A stretch of 5,244 nt of DNA from a virus (taxonomy: Duplodnaviria; Heunggongvirae; Uroviricota; Caudoviricetes). The notes below the pieces were generated by a model, which was given only the letters and a program-made list of their open reading frames with translations, was not told the origin of the DNA and did no database searches. Below are positions 1 through 5,244 of the stretch, in pieces (the first letter of the stretch is position 1; every line of letters starts with the position of its first letter). A program made the position numbers and the translations under genes. The DNA is taken from IMG/VR virus record IMGVR_UViG_2740892233_000010; one strand, given 5' to 3'.

Positions 1-704
1 TGCCCCACGGTTCCGTACTGCCCCTTTGACAGGTCCGCTTTCGGATGGTTAAGGCGGCTCATGTCCTGCACATCATGCAGACAATGGTCCGCCGGAATGA
101 TGTCGTTATATTTGCATGCTGCACCGCCCGGTGTCACCGTACTGCGGCGCGCCAGCTGCTTAATACGCGGGTCCGGACGGTCATATGTCTCCGGCAGCGG
201 AAGGCCTTCACCATATGCCATGCTGTTTGNNNNNNNNNNACAGGCGACACCGCCCGGTGTCACCGTACTGCGACGCGCCAGCTGCTTAATGCGCGGGTCC
301 GGACGGTCATATGTCTCCGGCAGCGGAAGGCCTTCACCATATGCCATGCTGTTTGACTGCCCCGCCAGAACCACAACAAAGTAATACTCCGGGTCTCTGG
401 TGGCGCTGATTACTGTGCCTTCTCCATCCGACGGCTTCACCAACACAGGTGTGGTGACATCACCTTCCGCCGCAATGGCCTGCATCAGAGTATAAGGCGT
501 GATGGCCACCGGGCTGCCAAATGGCTGCCACCCCTCCTTCAGTTTTTGTGTCAGCTTTTCCGCAAGGTCTGACGGCGACGCCGCCCTGACAACATCATAA
601 TGTTTAATCGNNNNNNNNNNGCCCTCTTTCAGTTTGTGTGTCAGCTTTTCCGCAAGGTCTGACGGCGACGCCGCCCTGACAACATCATAATGTTTAATCG
701 ACAT
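1..704 (-). CDS. nanS-p: Prophage sialate O-acetylesterase NanS-p-like (N-terminal DUF1737-type region plus SGNH/SASA esterase), 5' part; gene continues beyond window start
   Basis: Minus-strand ATG at 704-702 with GGGAG about 8 nt upstream. Manual translation: MSIKHYDVVRAASPSDLAEKLT(H/Q)KLKEGWQPFGSPVAITPYTLMQAIAAEGDVTTPVLVKPSDGEGTVISATRDPEYYFVVVLAGQSNSMAYGEGLPLPETYDRPDPRIKQLARRSTVTPGG..CKYNDIIPADHCLHDVQDMSRLNHPKADLSKGQYGTVG, open to position 1. The GQSN motif and N-terminal region match my recollection of NanS-p. The frame is interrupted by 10-N runs at 230-239 and 611-620 with duplicated flanks. Confidence 0.8.
   Translation of the reverse strand, partial: MSIKHYDVVRAASPSDLAEKLTHKLKEGXXXXIKHYDVVRAASPSDLAEKLTQKLKEGWQPFGSPVAITPYTLMQAIAAEGDVTTPVLVKPSDGEGTVISATRDPEYYFVVVLAGQSNSMAYGEGLPLPETYDRPDPRIKQLARRSTVTPGGVACXXXXNSMAYGEGLPLPETYDRPDPRIKQLARRSTVTPGGAACKYNDIIPADHCLHDVQDMSRLNHPKADLSKGQYGTVG
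122..356. repeat. Near-identical tandem duplication flanking a 10-N run (230-239); probable unmerged assembly overlap
   Basis: About 108 nt at 122-229 recur at 249-356 with 2 substitutions (synonymous cgt/cgc in the nanS-p frame). Copy edges next to the gap diverge (GGAAC vs GGVAC at protein level). Confidence 0.9.
532..700. repeat. Near-identical tandem duplication flanking a 10-N run (611-620)
   Basis: About 80 nt at 532-610 recur at 621-700 with about 3 substitutions near one edge, giving TQKLKEG vs THKLKEG in the nanS-p N-terminus. Confidence 0.9.
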
Positions 705-922: not shown

Positions 923-1004
923 GAAACAACACTTTTGTGGCAAAGCATGGTGCCGGGTGCCTCCCGGTGAATTCAGTATCAGCACCTGAATNNNNNNNNN
1001 NATT

Positions 1005-1029
1005 GCCCGAACCCATTCGGGCATTTTTT
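1005..1029 (+). terminator. Intrinsic terminator (plus strand)
   Basis: Perfect hairpin GCCCGAA-CCCA-TTCGGGC (1005-1022) followed by ATTTTTT (1023-1029). Confidence 0.6.
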
Positions 1030-1035
1030 ACCCAT

Positions 1036-1059
1036 AAAAAAGCCCCTCCGGAGAGGGGC
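1036..1059 (-). terminator. Intrinsic terminator (minus strand), back-to-back with the plus-strand one
   Basis: Hairpin GCCCCTC-CGGA-GAGGGGC (1042-1059); on the minus strand it is followed by U6 (A-run 1036-1041 on plus strand). Confidence 0.6.
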
Positions 1060-1140
1060 ATGTTTGCATGCACATTCTTTTTCTTGCATGGTGCCGGGTG
1101 CCTCCCGGTGAATTCAGTATCAGCACCTGAATCCGCGATT

Positions 1141-1326
1141 ATCACATATACCTGGTTGCTGATTGCCCCTCCGCACAGGGGGATTCACCATGCAGTAGTA
1201 TTTTTAATAAACAGTAAACAAAAAAATCNNNNNNNNNNTCCCATATACCTGGTTGCTGATCGCCCCTCCGCACAGGGGGATTCACCATGCAGTAGTATTT
1301 TTAATAAACAGTAAACAAAAAAATCA
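1141..1326. repeat. Near-identical tandem duplication flanking a 10-N run (1229-1238)
   Basis: About 88 nt at 1141-1228 recur at 1239-1326 with a few substitutions (atcacatatacc vs tcccatatacc; gattgcccc vs gatcgcccc). Intergenic. Confidence 0.9.
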
Positions 1327-1490
1327 AGCATTATGCAGGCTGTTTCTTTTTATCACCGGCCACAGCAATACCACAATGCCGCAGACCAGCACCCCATCCG
1401 CCAGCACCGACATGATTCTGCTGGTGAAATCCACCATCACCACCAGAAACAGCAGGAGTGCAGCCACAGCCAGGCGCAGTTTTACCGTCA
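1324..1490 (-). CDS. Putative small membrane protein (about 55 aa, two predicted hydrophobic helices), possibly translationally coupled to the TerB-like gene
   Basis: GTG at 1490-1488 overlaps the TerB-like stop (GTGA) with GGAG 8 nt upstream; stop TGA at 1326-1324. Manual translation: (M)TVKLRLAVAALLLFLVVMVDFTSRIMSVLADGVLVCGIVVLLWPVIKRNSLHNA. Codon third positions look E. coli-like (ctg, gtg). Below the length cut-off of the supplied ORF track; no homolog recalled. Confidence 0.3.
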
Positions 1491-2098
1491 CTGGTGATTC
1501 TCCAGACGAAGACCCAGAACACCGGCAATCTCTTCCAGCACCTTGCGCTCTTCCGGCTCAATTTCGCCGTCTGCCTCCGCAATGGCCACCGCCACATCCA
1601 GCACATCTTCCGCTTCACGCGTATCGTGTTTCACATCCTCGATCTCACGTAACGCCGCACGACGACCAATTTTAAAGTTCGTATCCAGCTGACCGATAAT
1701 GGTTGCGCTAATCGCATTAATTTCTGACGTAAACGCGGACAGCGCAGGCTGATTACGCAGTACCTGTTCGATCTTCGCTTTCTAGGAAGCCTCACATTCA
1801 CCATCTGCANNNNNNNNNNAATCTCGCGTAACGCGGCACGACGACCAATTTTAAAATTGGTATCCAGCTGACCGATAATAGTTGCGCTAATCGCATTAAT
1901 TTCCGAGGTAAACGCAGACAACGCAGGCTGATTACGTAAGACCTGTTCGATCTTCGCTTTCTCGGATGCCTCGCATTCACCATCTGCATAGGCCACCAGG
2001 TATGCAGCGTTAATCACCGCCTGTGCCAGATCGCGTTTCTCAAACTTTTTAATTTCCGCTGCCGCTCTGCGGGTTTTCTTTTTGAAGATTCCAAACAT
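1487..2098 (-). CDS. TerB-family (tellurite-resistance TerB-like) protein, about 143 aa once the artefactual duplication is removed
   Basis: ATG at 2098-2096 with AGGAA 7 nt upstream; stop TGA at 1489-1487. Protein: MFGIFKKKTRRAAAEIKKFEKRDLAQAVINAAYLVAYADGECEASEKAKIEQVLRNQPALSAFTSEINAISATIIGQLDTNFKIGRRAALREIEDVKHDTREAEDVLDVAVAIAEADGEIEPEERKVLEEIAGVLGLRLENHQ. The two acidic ADG/SDG-containing helical repeats match the TerB pattern as I recall it. The literal span includes a duplicated 169-nt segment plus 10 N (1641-1819), which shifts the frame. Confidence 0.85.
1641..1988. repeat. Diverged tandem duplication (169 nt x2) flanking a 10-N run (1810-1819) inside the TerB-like gene
   Basis: 1641-1809 vs 1820-1988 differ at about 12 positions. 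Translated in the TerB frame all differences are synonymous except one: the left copy has TAG (plus 1782-1784, ctagga) where the right copy encodes Glu (ctcgga). Confidence 0.9.
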
Positions 2099-2230
2099 CG
2101 TGACGTTCCTTTGGGTGGGTGAGCCAACGCCCGGGAGCGATCTGCCCACAGAGAAAGTCACACTGACCACTCCGTAAGCTCACCCCCGAAAGGCTCTGTG
2201 GTTGATATGCGCCGGGCGTGGCGCAGATAC

Positions 2231-2254
2231 AAAAAAGGCCCGCCGAAGCGAGCC
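2231..2254 (-). terminator. Intrinsic terminator downstream of the tRNA cluster (minus strand)
   Basis: Minus-strand RNA GGCUCGC-UUCG-GCGGGCC (7-bp stem with one G-U pair, UUCG tetraloop; plus 2237-2254) followed by U6 (A-run 2231-2236), 14 nt after the tRNA-Arg(UCU) 3' end. Confidence 0.65.
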
Positions 2255-2267
2255 TGGAAAATAAGTG

Positions 2268-2344
2268 TGGCGCGTTGTAGTGGAGTCGAACCACTGACCG
2301 ATTGCTTAGAAGGCAATTGCTCTGTCCGACTGAGCTAACAACGC
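2268..2344 (-). tRNA. argO: tRNA-Arg (anticodon UCU)
   Basis: Manual cloverleaf: GCGTTGT-TA-GCTC(D)-GAGC, anticodon stem ATTGC/GCAAT, loop CTTCTAA (anticodon TCT), T-arm with GGTTCGACTCC, acceptor 3' ACAACGC, discriminator G, CCA encoded. 77 nt. Symbol assigned from position in the ileZ-argN-argO trio. Confidence 0.85.
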
Positions 2345-2357
2345 ATGATGCTGATAA

Positions 2358-2434
2358 TGGACCGCCATCGGGGACTTGAACCCCGCGCAGCCAGCTTCGA
2401 AGGCTGGCGCTCTGTCCCGATGAGCTAATGGCGG
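2358..2434 (-). tRNA. argN: tRNA-Arg (anticodon UCG)
   Basis: Manual cloverleaf: acceptor CCGCCAT/ATGGCGG (C1-G72), D-stem GCTC/GAGC, anticodon stem CCAGC/GCTGG, loop CTTCGAA (anticodon TCG), T-arm CGGGG-TTCAAGT-CCCCG, discriminator T, CCA encoded. 77 nt. Isotype read from the anticodon only. Confidence 0.8.
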
Positions 2435-2443
2435 TATGTGATA

Positions 2444-2519
2444 TGGTGGCCCTTGCTGGATTTGAACCAGCGACCTGGCGATTATGAGTCGCTCGCTCTC
2501 ACCACTGAGCTAAAGGGCC
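2444..2519 (-). tRNA. ileZ: tRNA-Ile2 (anticodon CAU, lysidine type; formally could be tRNA-Met)
   Basis: GGCCCTTTAGCTCAGTGGTGAGAGCGAGCGACTCATAATCGCCAGGTCGCTGGTTCAAATCCAGCAAGGGCCACCA, 76 nt. Perfect acceptor stem GGCCCTT/AAGGGCC, anticodon loop CTCATAA. Very close to E. coli ileX as I recall it. Confidence 0.85.
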
Positions 2520-2547
2520 GAGCCAAAAAATAATAATCAGATGAAAA

Positions 2548-3261
2548 TCAATAATCAAGCCCTTGCCTGGATACATATCTGTCTGGCGGGAAGCCATAAT
2601 AGCGGTGAAATACAGAAATAAAGTAGGACCTGCTTGAATAACCGCATTTTTCTGCTATAGCCTGTCCATATCCATGCCGGGAACATAACATATTTACAGC
2701 AACACGCATCCGCTCTTCCAGCAACAAGCGACTGAACATGCCCCCTTCATTTTTCAGTTTTGTCTTTAACAAACTCTCACTCATATGCAACTGTAGAGCA
2801 ATCGCACCAAGCGTCCAGCTTGCTGATATATCTGTCTGAATTATCGCCCTGACTTTGGCACTTATGCTGGATAAACATCCACTTAAAAACAATGACATCC
2901 GTTCATCTGTTTCAAACAGAGACAGGCAGGCCATCATAAGAAACATATCCGTGGCCTCTCCGGAAAATCCCTGGCTGGTAATTAAAGCCGCAGCCAACGC
3001 AGGATTGTTGGGTTCCAGCAACAGGTAAAGCGGAATGTCAGTCAGACGAGTCCTCGTCAGCTTATGCTGACTTTCCAGATATTGACTTACGACGGATTCG
3101 CTTATATCGACAATTTTAACTTTGCCATAATGCATAAGGAAAAGCTCCCTGATGCATTTGGTGGCCAGAACGACTGAGCCTGGCTTAAGTGACAACGTAT
3201 CCTTTTCAAGAAAAATATTAATTGGGGAGCAAACCATGATAACTGAACAGACAACAGCCAT
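2548..3261 (-). CDS. AraC/XylS-family transcriptional regulator (AppY/GadX-like), prophage-borne
   Basis: 237-aa ORF from ATG 3261 to TGA 2548-2550. C-terminal double HTH (WTLGAIALQLHMSESLLKTKLKNEGGMFSRLLLEERMRVAVNMLCSRHGYGQAIAEKCGYSSRSYFISVFHRYYGFPPDRYV). N-terminus MAVVCSV resembles AppY (MDYVCSV). Gene is visibly AT-rich and uses rare codons (manual count 5 ATA, 5 AGG, 1 AGA). Exact identity (PatE/Psr-like?) not resolved. Confidence 0.88.
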   Translation of the reverse strand: MAVVCSVIMVCSPINIFLEKDTLSLKPGSVVLATKCIRELFLMHYGKVKIVDISESVVSQYLESQHKLTRTRLTDIPLYLLLEPNNPALAAALITSQGFSGEATDMFLMMACLSLFETDERMSLFLSGCLSSISAKVRAIIQTDISASWTLGAIALQLHMSESLLKTKLKNEGGMFSRLLLEERMRVAVNMLCSRHGYGQAIAEKCGYSSRSYFISVFHRYYGFPPDRYVSRQGLDY

Positions 3262-3296
3262 TATAATTTTACTTTCATTAGCAATTGGTTAGCTCA

Positions 3297-3327
3297 ATTA
3301 TAGCCCCAAAAGGTAAATTATCATCAA
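3297..3327 (-). promoter_or_regulatory. Candidate sigma70 promoter for the AraC-family gene
   Basis: Minus-strand consensus -10 TATAAT (plus 3297-3302) with a TTGATG -35-like hexamer (plus 3322-3327), 19-bp spacer, about 35 nt upstream of ATG 3261, in an AT-rich leader. Spacer is longer than optimal. Confidence 0.3.
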
Positions 3328-3381
3328 CACATAAGCAAAGGACTGACAGGTGTCGCCCCCCCACCAGCCGCCCATTCACCA

Positions 3382-3409
3382 CAAATAAAAAGCCTTCAGG
3401 ACTGAAGGC
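3382..3409 (-). terminator. Intrinsic terminator overlapping the stop of the small upstream ORF (minus strand)
   Basis: Hairpin GCCTTCA-GGAC-TGAAGGC (3392-3409) followed on the minus strand by UUUUUAUUUG (plus A-run 3382-3390). The stop TGA (3398-3396) lies in the stem. Confidence 0.55.
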
Positions 3410-3593
3410 GTCTGTAACAACCGCACTGATAGTCTGCCAGACCCGCCATAACAAGCTGGGTCAGTATTAACTGGCAGCGTTCGCGTGAAAGGTAAGTATT
3501 CTGCGCAACCTCCCCGACTGTCGCCGGTTCGGTAACGCTTAATTCATTAAACACCACTCTGGCGGTTTCGGTCATATCCTGCTGTTTCAGCAT
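3396..3593 (-). CDS. Small putative winged-helix DNA-binding protein (PapI/FaeA-like), about 65 aa
   Basis: ATG at 3593 with AGGGA 7 nt upstream. MLKQQDMTETARVVFNELSVTEPATVGEVAQNTYLSRERCQLILTQLVMAGLADYQCGCYRRLQS. The layout (leader, TVGEVAQ...SRERCQLILTQLVMAGL helix pair) resembles PapI (…[30 protein letters not shown]…) as recalled. The longer ORF-track start at 3716 is a GTG inside the terminator U-tract and was not used. Confidence 0.5.
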   Translation of the reverse strand: MLKQQDMTETARVVFNELSVTEPATVGEVAQNTYLSRERCQLILTQLVMAGLADYQCGCYRRLQS

Positions 3594-3716
3594 GTCTTTT
3601 TCCCTTTTTCGGTTAACGTGACACACCAATAACTCTTGTCGAAAAAGCCAGCAAGCTGAAAGAACGGTATTAATAACCACCAGCGAATTTATTGCGCTGC
3701 TGTATATTACGGACAC

Positions 3717-3737
3717 AAAAAAACCACCTTCCGGTGG
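3717..3737 (-). terminator. Strong intrinsic terminator about 100 nt downstream of Q (tR'-like)
   Basis: Minus-strand RNA CCACC-GGAA-GGUGG (plus 3724-3737) followed directly by U7 (A-run 3717-3723). Confidence 0.7.
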
Positions 3738-3834
3738 CTTCCTTGTGCGAAAAAACTTGCATTTCGCCTCGCGATACAGCTTTGCGAAGCTTACAGGAAT
3801 TCAAGCTGTTTCTGCGTAAAAAAGCAAGCTTTTT
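3738..3834 (-). promoter_or_regulatory. Candidate Q-dependent late promoter (pR'-like) and qut region
   Basis: Positional inference only: the interval between the Q stop (3835) and the tR'-like terminator is where pR' and the qut site sit in lambdoid phages. Only weak hexamers visible (e.g. TTGCTT ... TTGAAT); not pinned down. Confidence 0.25.
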
Positions 3835-4377
3835 TTATCGAAATGAATCGTGCATAGGTACATAAAGCATGTGTTCAGCCACGGCTAACCAACCTGCAAT
3901 ACGTTTCTCACATGTGCTGAAACACCATTCCGGGTGAGTACGATTTAAACATTCTGCCATTTTTCTCTTACTCATTCCCCGTCCTTCGTACCTTTGCCGG
4001 AGAATATTGATTAGCCCGGGATATTCCCCAAGCACCTCACTGATAACGCGATCAATAATCAACGCCTCTGTGTCTGTACAATGTGACAACCAGCTCTTCT
4101 GCTTCCCTCTGGTCATATCCCGAAAAAATGCCTCAAGTTCCGGTTTTTCCAGCCCGGATTTCTTCATGCTGCGTAAAACCTCATTAACTGCTGTTTTCGT
4201 CAGCTTTTTCGAAACCAGTAACCGGTTAAACATATTTCCGGATTTACCCCCACCGATATACGACCACCGCCCCCACATCCGTAATTTCCCCTGGATCCAG
4301 ACTGCTTCCAGCGTGTTCAGGCGTAAATGTTCGCCGCTTTTGCCTGTAATTTCCGGATATATCATATTTACGCTCAC
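3835..4377 (-). CDS. Late-gene antitermination protein Q homolog (QuuD/933W-Q type)
   Basis: 180-aa ORF just downstream of rusA, overlapping its stop (GTGA at 4374-4377; alternative ATG at 4365). N-terminal WGRW motif and C-terminal region (ALIIDRVISEVLGEYPGLINILRQRYEGRGMSKRKMAECLNRTHPEW) line up with recalled DLP12 QuuD/933W Q (ERWGAWA...AMIICGCMARL...). Followed by a short leader and strong terminator. Confidence 0.7.
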   Translation of the reverse strand: MSVNMIYPEITGKSGEHLRLNTLEAVWIQGKLRMWGRWSYIGGGKSGNMFNRLLVSKKLTKTAVNEVLRSMKKSGLEKPELEAFFRDMTRGKQKSWLSHCTDTEALIIDRVISEVLGEYPGLINILRQRYEGRGMSKRKMAECLNRTHPEWCFSTCEKRIAGWLAVAEHMLYVPMHDSFR

Positions 4378-4733
4378 TCACTCTCAATTTTGTAAATCTT
4401 CACACCCAGCCGTCCACCAGATACTGGCTGACCGCGCACAATATTGATTTCATCAAACTGCTCGTCATCAATGAGCACTTCCGCATGCGTCAGCGCATCC
4501 AGCGGTGCTTTCAGAATGTTGTCCAGGTCACGGCGGCGCTTATCCGGTGGCTCTGCAATCACCTTTATCGCCAGCCTTCCGGACAGGCTTAATTTCAGCC
4601 GCTGCTGGCGAACAATAAGCGCCACAGCCCGGCGATAACGCTTTCCCTCCTCCGAGATAAAATATGTGCTGCCACGGCGTCGCCAGTAAGTGTTCACCGT
4701 CGGCGGGTAAGGTAAAACCAAATCTATGAGCAT
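4374..4733 (-). CDS. rusA: Holliday-junction resolvase RusA
   Basis: ATG at 4733 with strong SD (AAGAGGTGA) 5 nt upstream. MLIDLVLPYPPTVNTYWRRRGS...EGKRYRR...PPDKRRRDLDNILKAPLDALTHAEVLIDDEQ...GGRLGVKI shares the PDRRRRDLDN, DALT, DD.Q and GGRL blocks with E. coli RusA. Confidence 0.9.
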   Translation of the reverse strand: MLIDLVLPYPPTVNTYWRRRGSTYFISEEGKRYRRAVALIVRQQRLKLSLSGRLAIKVIAEPPDKRRRDLDNILKAPLDALTHAEVLIDDEQFDEINIVRGQPVSGGRLGVKIYKIESE

Positions 4734-4745
4734 CAGTCACCTCTT

Positions 4746-5201
4746 TTACCCAAGCACGCCAGTTGCAAAGGCGTGATCAAGAAAACGAAAAATTAAATCA
4801 ACCTGAGAACCATGCTTTTCTTCGAACGCCAGCGGATCCGCATGAAGCTCGTTGTGATGCTCCCGACACAGCGGTAGCGTGAAAATATCGTGAGATTTTG
4901 TCCCCATTCCCCCCTGACCATGACCAATCAGGTGATGCGGATCGTCAGCAGGCTTACCACAACACGCACACGGCTGTGTCTTCACCCAGTGCGTGTATTT
5001 CTCGTTAACCCAGCGGCGACGTTTAGGTCGTTTCATGAAAGATTCCGGAGACTCAGGATCAACGGCAATGCTGACCACCGTCTTTTCCTGTGGCGGTTTT
5101 TGCTGGTGAGCGTGAGGCAGCGGCGCAAGATTTTTTGTGCGCTGCTTCAGTATGCTGGTGGCGGTCTGCTCTCCCGGTACGATGTCGCTTTCACGGTACA
5201 T
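4746..5201 (-). CDS. DUF1364/YbcO-like nin-region protein (Cys/His-rich, putative nuclease); start uncertain
   Basis: C-terminal 96 aa (from ATG 5036: MKRPKRRRWVNEKYTHWVKTQPCACCGKPADDPHHLIGHGQGGMGTKSHDIFTLPLCREHHNELH...) parallel DLP12 YbcO in length and Cys/His spacing. The frame stays open upstream to the window edge; ATG 5201 overlaps an upstream-frame stop, so the start may be 5036, 5201, or outside the window. Stop TAA at 4748-4746, 12 nt before the rusA start. Confidence 0.7.
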   Translation of the reverse strand: MYRESDIVPGEQTATSILKQRTKNLAPLPHAHQQKPPQEKTVVSIAVDPESPESFMKRPKRRRWVNEKYTHWVKTQPCACCGKPADDPHHLIGHGQGGMGTKSHDIFTLPLCREHHNELHADPLAFEEKHGSQVDLIFRFLDHAFATGVLG

Positions 5202-5244
5202 TGAGCGGATTTTTTCCGCACGCAACCCCAGCGAACGACGTAAT
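5191..5244 (-). CDS. 3' end of an unidentified upstream nin-region ORF (partial)
   Basis: A second minus-strand frame is open from the window edge and ends ...ITSFAGVACGKNPLNVP-TGA at 5193-5191, overlapping ATG 5201 of the next gene. Only 17 codons visible; no homolog recognised. Confidence 0.25.
   Translation of the reverse strand: MTSFAGVACGKNPLNVP

Follow-up and report, generated by a model that had tools for sequence, protein, structure and literature searches.

A tciA-tciB accessory cassette at the stx2AB junction of an EHEC-type lambdoid prophage

The tciA and tciB genes and their assembly

The 5,244-nucleotide (nt) stretch of viral DNA analysed here (the window) carries on its minus strand a phage accessory ("moron") cassette, tciA-tciB. 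The two genes encode a TerB-like protein of 143 amino acids (TciA) and a tiny two-helix membrane peptide (TciB), and this cargo pair is almost certainly the tciA-tciB pair of phage P1. The elements of the pair are listed here, with L005 and L004 denoting an intact and a decayed reference copy, respectively.

1324..1491, minus strand: tciB (DUF3927), 55 amino acids, predicted two-helix membrane hairpin; its GTG start shares GTGA with the tciA stop (Pfam, PHROG, hydropathy)
1488..1809, minus strand: tciA codons 38-143 and TGA stop, from the decayed paralogous copy (100% identity to L004)
1500..1503, minus strand: tciB Shine-Dalgarno sequence GGAG, 8 nt upstream of the GTG, within the 3' end of tciA
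1782-1784, minus strand: premature TAG at tciA codon 46, an invariant Glu (sequence and family alignment)
1810..1819, no strand: N10 scaffold gap inside tciA; its flanks, 1642-1809 and 1821-1988, are mutual duplicates with 15 mismatches
1820..2098, minus strand: tciA (TerB family) codons 1-93, intact allele, with ATG at 2098-2096 (translation, 100% identity to L005, Pfam TerB)
2106..2111, minus strand: tciA Shine-Dalgarno sequence AAGGAA, 7-8 nt before the ATG, read from the sequence

TciA is a cytoplasmic, all-helical protein of the TerB family. It matches the Pfam TerB profile (PF05099) over residues 26-138 with 60.4 bits (cut-off, 24.4; E = 2.6e-16) and aligns over its full length with the solved TerB of Klebsiella (2JXU; residues 14-137 of the query with 20-144 of the chain; E = 4.4e-8, 36.7 bits). 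The AlphaFold model (pLDDT of 89.4) consists of helices throughout, and a Foldseek search with it returned chains of 2H5N (PG1108) as the best matches, with a probability of 1.00 and TM scores of 0.55-0.63 at an E value of only 0.025. We take 2H5N, deposited as a protein of unknown function, to be a TerB family member. An alignment of 25 homologues contains two acidic (A)DG...E motifs, the first with D39 and G40 nearly invariant and E46 invariant, the second with D117, G118, and E124 all invariant. A search of NCBIfam found no specific family for TciA and only sub-threshold matches to DjlA and YmfL; the sub-threshold matches of its TerB-like region include DjlA (NF006948; E = 9e-7) and DUF533 (E = 3e-5). 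A marginal Pfam match to the zf-HC2 zinc finger at residues 33-51 (22.7 bits; cut-off, 22.2) shares residues with the first ADGECE motif and was rejected as spurious.

The tciB ORF starts within the end of tciA, at the junction CTGGAGAATCACCAGTGACGG, where the tciA TGA (1490-1488) and the tciB GTG (1491-1489) overlap in the four nucleotides GTGA. The preliminary description of this DNA had noted this overlap and the GGAG ahead of it, and both are read at 1491-1488 and 1503-1500; by these signals, tciB is predicted to be translationally coupled to tciA. TciB matches DUF3927 (PF13064) with 62.3 bits (cut-off, 25; E = 4.3e-17), and the PHROG matches are PHROG 632 and PHROG 1470 "TciB-like" (TciB against PHROG 1470, E = 4e-30). 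Its hydropathy profile peaks twice, at about residues 5-23 and 26-47, on either side of DFTSR, and the motif DFTS...LADG...WP..K is kept across seven phage lineages. An exhaustive search of 1.84 billion representative proteins with the DUF3927 profile yielded 109 clusters, nearly all of 50-65 amino acids, and no genuine TerB-DUF3927 domain fusion, the few long matches being frameshift or assembly chimaeras. For P0152, in which a natural frameshift fuses TciA to TciB, AlphaFold with an unpaired alignment models the TciB part as one long helix (pLDDT of 47-72) and shows no confident TciA-TciB contact. Both ORFs lie on the minus strand at the coordinates first given for them, with Pfam scores (60.4 and 62.3 bits) far beyond chance. 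The TerB-like nature then proposed for the larger protein agrees with Pfam, the 2JXU alignment, and AlphaFold/Foldseek, and the small ORF has the conservation (seven lineages, 109 clusters) and the hydropathy of a conserved, coupled membrane peptide.

The span 1324-2098, presented earlier as the extent of the pair, does hold both ORFs but is not contiguous gene sequence, being interrupted by an N gap and a duplicate. Runs of N10 link the seven pieces of the window, a scaffold in which the ends of the pieces overlap imperfectly and the overlapping pieces come from a pair of paralogous prophages. Identity is 100% between the piece 1239-1809 and the decayed paralogous copy L004, which is 5'-truncated and has an internal stop (RefSeq labels its tciA a pseudogene with internal stop), and likewise between the piece 1820-5244 and L005, the intact locus carried by E. 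coli O26 RM10386. The window's tciA is a chimaera of an intact and a decayed copy, the latter supplying the 3' two-thirds with E46*. The 168-nt duplicates 1642-1809 and 1821-1988 differ by 14 synonymous changes and one TAG at codon 46. Removal of 179 artefactual bases restores the 143-amino-acid TciA, and the true length of the pair is 596 nt, not 775 nt.

The stx2AB junction and the prophage backbone

The pair is a late-region cassette of an EHEC-type lambdoid prophage and stands at the junction that is occupied by stx2AB in Stx2 phages. The features that define this slot are listed below.

1..704, minus strand: 5' part of nanS-p (SASA-family esterase), with ATG at 704-702; scaffold joins interrupt the gene
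1030..1219, minus strand: STnc100-family small RNA (sRNA) region (Rfam RF02076, 147.8 bits), the left-hand border of the slot, backbone and not cargo
1310..2219, minus strand: tciAB cassette, approximate extent, counting the 179 artefactual bases; neither the Stx2 phage nor the empty-slot phage has this sequence
2230..2255, minus strand: intrinsic terminator after argO, AGGCTCGC-TTCG-GCGGGCCT plus T6, the right-hand border of the slot, in a block conserved with Min27 and PhiR49_2
2268..2519, minus strand: tRNA trio ileZ (CAT), argN (TCG), and argO (TCT) (ARAGORN, Rfam, RefSeq annotation)
about 3720-3745: tR'-like terminator after the Q-like gene
3835..4377, minus strand: Q-like antiterminator gene (DUF1133/Phage_antitermQ)

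The bounds of the cassette were taken from blastn comparisons of L005 with Min27 and PhiR49_2 (L005 6669-7400) and mapped onto the window. The cassette of L005 (∼0.73 kb) stands where Min27 has stx2AB, between flanks that are 91-95% identical, and the empty-slot phage PhiR49_2 has 46 bp between the same flanks. The STnc100 region occupies the same position in all of them, following stx2B in Min27 and tciB in L005, and is likewise present in the empty-slot phage. The preliminary description had placed stxAB in this slot in Stx-converting phages; for the Stx2 phages, this is confirmed by the flanks, which align with those of Min27 as far as the argO terminator and, on the other side, the STnc100 region, and by the 46 bp of PhiR49_2. 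The TerB-like gene is accessory and not core. The backbone order given there (Q-like gene, tRNA trio, cargo, nanS-p) is also found. A 65-amino-acid ORF and an AraC-family gene, both unlisted in that description, lie between Q and the tRNAs. An Rfam match to AgvB at 965-1029 on the plus strand scores 35.8, below the gathering score of 56.

Like the stx2AB moron of Min27, the cassette consists of two genes, is inserted at that same point between the argO terminator and STnc100-nanS-p, and would be expected to undergo Q-dependent late transcription; unlike it, it encodes unrelated proteins and measures 0.73 kb versus 1.37 kb for stxAB. Lying exactly at the stx2 junction and sharing the terminator and sRNA flanks, tciAB sets the bounds of the recombination module by which Shiga toxin genes are gained and lost. 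In the lambdoid phage JLK-2012 (NC_049942), where the names tciA and tciB are annotated in the same slot as in the window, the order is Q, tRNAs, tciA, tciB, yjhS/nanS-p, S, R, and Rz, and TciA is 97% identical, whereas the tRNA set is Asn, Thr, and Gly. TciB of JLK-2012 is only 70% identical, and the pair is therefore mosaic around the junction. Both proteins of Escherichia phage Evi are identical to those of L005, which differ from the TciA of the window at the last residue only (L versus Q).

In P1, a TerB-family protein of ∼142 amino acids is likewise followed directly by a DUF3927 peptide of ∼54 amino acids, one base belonging to both stop and start (TGATG), and there too the pair adjoins tRNA genes and is non-essential accessory cargo. 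The identity is only 43% for TciA and 50% for TciB, however, and the P1 pair is located between the C1-controlled Pban promoter/operator and ban, whereas the pair described here lies in a probably Q-dependent late region. P1 also has tciC, encoding a 35-amino-acid single-helix peptide; no such ORF is in the window's list, and there is no tciC equivalent here because the STnc100 region of the reference locus starts 5 nt after the tciB stop.

Prior records, distribution, and selection

The tciA-tciB pair is real, conserved, and accessory rather than core, and EHEC prophages carry it very commonly. The earlier proposal of an undescribed system does not hold: public records already give the names of the pair (in P1 and JLK-2012), its Pfam and PHROG families, and its location in lambdoid prophages, and the exact TciA and TciB proteins are both present in databases. 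The P1 record (GenBank AF234173) assigns the tciA and tciB functions "by homology" only. A literature search for TciA/TciB function found no experiment; it returned annotation-level mentions, a P1 transcriptome mention, and the non-essentiality call of a P1 CRISPRi study, which scored tciA, tciB, and tciC as non-essential. As a discovery, tciAB matters little, being among the commonest cargo items of EHEC prophages: among 5,426 complete E. coli genomes, about 760 to 780 are carriers. Genomes with any tciB have a median of six copies of it, and in EHEC genomes the pair is multi-copy.

The tciB gene directly follows tciA in P1, JLK-2012, Evi, Klebsiella phage 1 LV-2017, Erwinia phage ChrisDB, FSL SP-076, and Pollock, and the stop and start overlap or abut in all seven lineages compared. 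Virulent N4-like phages and jumbo Erwinia phages also carry the coupled pair. No TciB was detectable beside the TciA homologues of Pseudomonas phage AF and Vibrio phage K481; in phage 434, a TciB-like ORF stands without TciA. Comparing the O26 locus with P1, FSL SP-076, and Pollock, TciB retains 50-57% identity, and the identity of TciA falls to 32-43%. The dN/dS values between the O26 locus and JLK-2012 are 0.04 for tciA and 0.31 for tciB, and purifying selection on the family is strong.

That selection bears on the idea that the pair is decaying baggage in this genome, the copy that supplies most of 1324-2098 being a pseudogene. The TAG at tciA codon 46 fits such decay, as do the 5' truncation and "internal stop" mark of the matching reference copy and the 3,930 places with tciB versus 2,772 with the 5' part of tciA in E. 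coli genomes. Set against this, every reference genome that is 100% identical to the window piece has an intact tciA in the other copy, the one in linkage with the tRNA trio, and with the strong selection on the family this makes decay of the pair as a whole improbable.

Expression and proposed function

A promoter scan of the coding strand between the terminator and the tciA ATG found none; it used the sigma-70 consensus only, which a weak or non-canonical promoter would escape. By eye, one weak candidate (TTGTAT-19 nt-TATCAA) can be picked out upstream of tciA. The cassette is preceded by at least three terminators. With no promoter-like site and with terminators ahead, tciAB would therefore be transcribed, like stx2, by Q-modified RNA polymerase only, and its position makes expression late, in lytic growth, fairly probable. 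Upon prophage induction, the Q-modified polymerase would read through the terminators and transcribe tciAB. Since coupled tciAB is also found in P1, jumbo Erwinia phages, and virulent N4-like phages, its role probably belongs to the lytic cycle.

Database names suggest instead that tciAB is expressed in lysogens, making the host resistant to tellurite, colicins, or both. TciA is indeed homologous to TerB, and the copy number is high in EHEC genomes. Lysogenic conversion of this kind is nevertheless unlikely, because tciAB is carried by virulent phages, which are never lysogenic, has a terminator directly upstream and no promoter-like site found by the scan, and lacks terC, terD, and terE. Neither terC nor terD is next to tciA in the window or the complete reference locus. 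Recent work cited in PMC12054061 makes TerC-TerD the smallest functional unit conferring tellurium resistance in E. coli, and a TerC-TerB complex has been reported (Turkovicova 2016, as cited in PMC11003894 and PMC12054061); terC also contributes to phage resistance in Klebsiella (PMC12054061). Compared with TerB-TerC of terZABCDEF (tellurite resistance, phage inhibition, colicin resistance), tciAB has the TerB fold, the two acidic ADG...E motifs, and the pairing of a soluble TerB protein with an integral membrane partner. A role in tellurite resistance is not expected, because TerD, TerE, TerZ, and TerA are missing and the partner is a 55-amino-acid hairpin, not the polytopic TerC. The pair thus probably gives no tellurite resistance, and the automatic "tellurite resistance" label is probably misleading.

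For late-expressed tciAB, we propose that TciB would recruit or partner TciA at the inner membrane and that the resulting complex would guard the infected cell's envelope or membrane potential, possibly by excluding superinfecting phages or pore-forming colicins or by resisting membrane-directed abortive defence. By analogy with TerB, which pairs with the membrane protein TerC, and with the TerB-like region of membrane-anchored DjlA, the chances that the two proteins form a membrane complex are about even. DjlA and DUF533 proteins are anchored in the inner membrane, and we take DUF533 to be YebE; such anchoring is the arrangement proposed for TciA plus TciB. The TerB-like helical matches to DjlA and DUF533 are weak, both below family cut-offs, and tciAB differs in that its membrane part is a separate coupled gene and the J domain is absent. 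A function in envelope protection or exclusion, suggested by analogy and distribution, is possible and tentative, and late expression would come rather late for superinfection exclusion in lambdoid phages. Taken as a whole, a late-expressed, membrane-associated TerB module protecting the envelope of the infected cell is the best explanation, one that may equally hold or fail.

The preliminary description had likened the pair to an abortive-infection or exclusion module. In a RexAB-like form acting in the lysogen, TciA would sense infection and TciB would depolarize the membrane, an idea in keeping with the pairing of a soluble protein and a small membrane-bound one and with the association of the ter locus with phage inhibition. 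Such a system is very unlikely here: tciAB is promoterless in a late operon, it occurs in virulent N4-like and jumbo phages, to which suicide of the infected cell is harmful, and the PADLOC-DB models gave no significant match (best for TciA, PDC-S48, E = 0.0034, 14.5 bits; nothing for TciB).

The full-length homology of TciA to TerB, the presence of tciAB in many unrelated phages, virulent ones included, and the part of terC in phage resistance would also fit a counter-defence decoy. TciA would then mimic host TerB and poison TerB-TerC, neutralizing ter-mediated phage inhibition, and TciB would aid membrane targeting. We give this little credence, since TciA matches TerB 2JXU only weakly (36.7 bits, E = 4e-8) and P1 and N4-like phages keep tciAB though growing on K-12, which is not known to carry a ter operon. 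The location in the late operon, a few genes ahead of the holin and lysozyme genes, and the small two-helix membrane protein TciB could further point to a regulator of lysis timing or membrane potential that modulates holin triggering. This is highly improbable, given that tciAB is not beside lysis genes in P1, N4-like, and jumbo phages and that Pfam and PHROG gave no similarity to holin or antiholin families.

The pair is very small and conserved over many phage groups and could give a simple experimental entry to the role of TerB-family proteins at the membrane. In an extended and doubtful form of the envelope-protection proposal, TciA-TciB would be a minimal, self-contained two-protein Ter machinery used lytically by many unrelated phages, with TciB as the membrane effector and TciA as its TerB-fold regulator, blocking superinfection or membrane-directed host defence. 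If so, tciAB would offer a tractable system for studying how ter phage inhibition and colicin resistance work. Reading TciB as the effector is based on its being more conserved than TciA across distant phages and being kept where tciA has decayed.

Reading frames of tciA and tciB

The tciA frame, on the minus strand, opens with an ATG at 2098 and is interrupted by a run of N at 1810-1819. This gap is flanked by two alleles of one 168-base stretch (1642-1809 and 1821-1988) with 15 differences, of which 14 are synonymous and 1 creates, in the left-hand allele, a TAG at codon 46 in place of the invariant Glu46. With 179 artefactual bases taken out, the frame encodes a 143-amino-acid TerB-like protein (TciA). 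The frame closes with a TGA (1490-1488) that overlaps the GTG (1491-1489) opening tciB, a 55-amino-acid ORF ending at 1324, and a GGAG lies 8 nt before this GTG, so that the GTGA overlap (1491-1488) and Shine-Dalgarno sequence of the preliminary description were read as described. That description took 1324-2098 as one pair; the two ORFs are real, but a scaffold join cuts tciA in two, and part of the gene is represented by a pseudogene allele.

Both ORFs are well beyond what chance would give: TciA scored 60.4 bits against Pfam TerB (PF05099; cut-off, 24.4) and TciB 62.3 bits against DUF3927 (PF13064; cut-off, 25), which, together with hydropathy, upholds the reading as a TerB-like protein coupled to a small membrane ORF. 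TciA aligned over its full length to the solved Klebsiella TerB 2JXU (E value of 4e-8), its AlphaFold model was all-helical (pLDDT 89) with 2H5N, presumably a TerB-family structure, as the top structural match, and two acidic ADG...E motifs were kept across an alignment of 25 homologues. The TerB-like region also weakly matched DjlA and DUF533, proteins that are membrane anchored. TciB has hydrophobic segments at about residues 5 to 23 and 26 to 47, with DFTSR between them, and both termini carry basic residues, as those of a membrane hairpin would.

The window is not a continuous natural sequence; it is built from seven pieces with runs of 10 N between them, as read from the sequence:

230-239, 611-620, 856-865, 992-1001, 1229-1238 and 1810-1819: N10 runs

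Neighbouring piece ends overlap by 47 to 168 bases, with mismatches. Pieces 240-610, 866-991 and 1820-5244 were 100% identical to the intact tciAB locus of E. coli O26 RM10386 (L005), and pieces 1-229, 621-855 and 1239-1809 were 100% identical to a decayed paralogous prophage locus of strain 03_3013 (L004), the pieces thus alternating between the two loci; the 84-nt left end (1002-1085) of piece 1002-1228 branches away from its neighbour piece. The window thus traces a path through the collapsed repeat graph of an enterohemorrhagic E. coli (EHEC)-type genome with several near-identical lambdoid prophages, and any feature within 1-1820 is duplicated or chimeric.

These scaffold artefacts arise because the copy number of tciAB in genomes is high. 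The tciAB piece was covered to at least 80% in 781 of 5,426 complete E. coli genomes, and 839 genomes together had 3,930 places matching tciB alone (a carrying genome had a median of six copies and at most ten), with O157:H7, O26 and O103 strains among the matches listed. The 5' part of tciA occurred in 2,772 places, tciB being about 1.4 times as frequent. At least some copies are decayed: in L004 (6086-6612, corresponding to 1239-1809 of the window), tciA lacks its first ∼17 codons and carries E46*, with a tciB that matches the intact copy at 100% identity. Together with the counts, this is a hint that tciB is retained, or merely survives, where tciA is lost.

The cargo slot shared with stx2AB

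The gene order is DUF968, RusA, a Q-like antiterminator (DUF1133/Phage_antitermQ), a 65-amino-acid ORF, an AraC-family regulator, ileZ-argN-argO, tciAB and nanS-p. The order of Q, tRNA trio, cargo and nanS-p proposed previously was borne out, but the 65-amino-acid ORF and the AraC-family gene had been skipped. The features that bear on the slot are as follows.

1030-1219, minus strand: STnc100-family sRNA (RF02076), Rfam 148 bits (208 bits in Min27)
L005 6507-6679, L006 3427-3632 and L007 4763-4962: STnc100 (Rfam) in the tciAB, stx2AB and empty-slot phages
2230-2255: terminator between argO and tciA, within the block common to Stx2 phages
2530-2558, minus strand: promoter-like site TTGATT-17-TATTAT, just upstream of ileZ
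2548-3261, minus strand: AraC-family helix-turn-helix regulator gene, low in GC (0.44), located after the Q-like gene and before the tRNA trio
3396-3593, minus strand: 65-amino-acid ORF, then a terminator, between the Q-like gene and the tRNA trio

The slot was mapped by aligning L005 with the Stx2 phage Min27 and with phage PhiR49_2. All three share the tRNA trio and the strong terminator that follows argO on one side and an STnc100-family sRNA region followed by nanS-p on the other; the interval enclosed measures 732 bp in L005 (tciAB), 1,369 bp in Min27 (stx2A-stx2B) and just 46 bp in PhiR49_2. Since the flanks are common and the cargo differs, tciAB is a discrete cassette at the junction that stx2AB occupies in Min27, as the earlier placement in the stxAB slot had supposed, and it is accessory rather than core. 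STnc100 directly follows the cargo in all three phages, beginning 5 nt past the tciB stop in L005, and marks a fixed boundary on the left of the slot; the anti-sRNA AsxR adjoins it in Min27. A sub-threshold Rfam match to AgvB was seen at 965-1029 (plus strand).

The region of the AraC-family gene and the 65-amino-acid ORF is a second cargo insertion, the former having its own promoter-like site (ATGATA-16-TATAAT, at about 3297-3324). The site upstream of ileZ and the terminator at 2230-2255 suggest that the three tRNA genes may be transcribed as a unit of their own, with insulation from the cargo.

Relatives of the pair

The pair is the tciA-tciB moron, already known and widespread, so the earlier suggestion of an undescribed cargo system did not hold: the names originate from bacteriophage P1, and PHROGs lists TciA as phrog_632 ("tellurite resistance") and TciB as phrog_1470 ([quoted passage not shown]). 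Lambdoid phage JLK-2012 has the same arrangement, annotated Q, tRNAs, tciA, tciB, yjhS (nanS-p), S, R and Rz, and both proteins of phage Evi are identical to those of L005. In public collections, the exact TciA sequence was found on 114 contigs and the exact TciB on 966; one source labels TciB "TciB/TerA-like protein." The remaining value of the pair would lie in its being a common, compact phage module with a function only proposed so far.

A profile built from TciB homologues placed TciB directly downstream of tciA in seven phages, confirming conservation of the small ORF: P1, JLK-2012, Evi, Klebsiella phage 1 LV-2017 (unannotated in its record), the Erwinia jumbo phage ChrisDB and the virulent N4-like phages FSL SP-076 and Pollock. 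None was found in Pseudomonas phage AF or Vibrio phage K481. In every TciB-positive phage compared, the stop codon of tciA and the start codon of tciB share bases or are adjacent (GTGA, TGATG, TAAATG) or sit 3 nt apart. TciB, with the motif LLFLVV-DFTS-MS-LADGVLV-WP--K, is better conserved than TciA against more distant phages (57% versus 32% identity between O26 and Pollock; 50% versus 43% for P1). Against JLK-2012, TciA is 97% and TciB 70% identical (dN/dS of 0.04 and 0.31, respectively), so the pair is mosaic.

An exhaustive TciB profile search of 1.84 billion representative proteins returned only 109 clusters, nearly all of 50 to 65 amino acids, and no true TciB-TerB fusion among them; a few longer matches were rejected as frameshift or assembly chimaeras. 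The rare entries P0152 (197 amino acids) and P0213 (170 amino acids), one of them named "zinc-finger family protein," join TciA and TciB through frameshifts near the GTGA junction and probably stem from errors of sequencing or assembly, or from pseudogenes, and not from genuine fusions. Phage 434 (L014 2112-3344) carries, in its Q-to-esterase slot, a TciB-like ORF with a TTG start and a divergent N terminus, without tciA, between an unrelated 247-amino-acid polytopic membrane protein and a 62-amino-acid membrane ORF; it is probably a remnant of recombination inside tciB.

tRNA genes lie within ∼200 nt to 1 kb of tciAB in 5 of 10 inspected tciA-bearing loci (P1, JLK-2012, Evi, L005 and ChrisDB), in at least four sets (Asn/Thr/Ile; Asn/Thr/Gly; Ile/Arg/Arg; Trp/Cys...Tyr/Gln/Ile/Met), Evi having a variant of the Ile/Arg/Arg trio read by ARAGORN as Met/Lys/Arg. 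This proximity could simply mirror shared accessory hot-spots.

Proposed function and expression timing

A literature search found no functional test of tciA or tciB, the genes being mentioned at annotation level and in a transcriptome; in a P1 CRISPRi study, tciA, tciB and tciC were nonessential. According to two papers, TerB acts in a complex whose integral membrane partner is TerC (PMC11003894, PMC12054061), and terC contributes to phage resistance (PMC12054061). We tentatively propose that TciB would hold or receive TciA at the inner membrane, and that the complex would protect the envelope or membrane potential of the infected cell, a reading that is possible rather than probable. When a naturally occurring frameshift fusion was modelled with AlphaFold, no contact between TciA and TciB was predicted with confidence. 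As terC and terD are missing, a role in tellurite resistance is unlikely. The ter cluster has been linked to phage inhibition and colicin resistance; a rival explanation is that TciA is a TerB decoy against a host ter defence. Another is a RexAB-like abortive-infection module, and PADLOC returned nothing significant for either protein. Control of lysis timing and lysogenic conversion are the remaining rivals to envelope protection.

Expression of stx2 depends on Q-mediated readthrough after induction. Given the terminator between argO and tciA, the lack of a sigma-70-like site in the 120 nt upstream of the tciA ATG and the further terminators after Q and after the 65-amino-acid ORF, tciAB holds the same regulatory position as stx2. 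The tci genes of P1 are flanked by ban and by the C1-repressed Pban promoter, and lysogeny is absent from the life cycles of N4-like and jumbo phages. The stx2-like position, the P1 location and the occurrence in N4-like and jumbo phages together argue that the pair serves lytic growth, the timing of expression being deduced from position.
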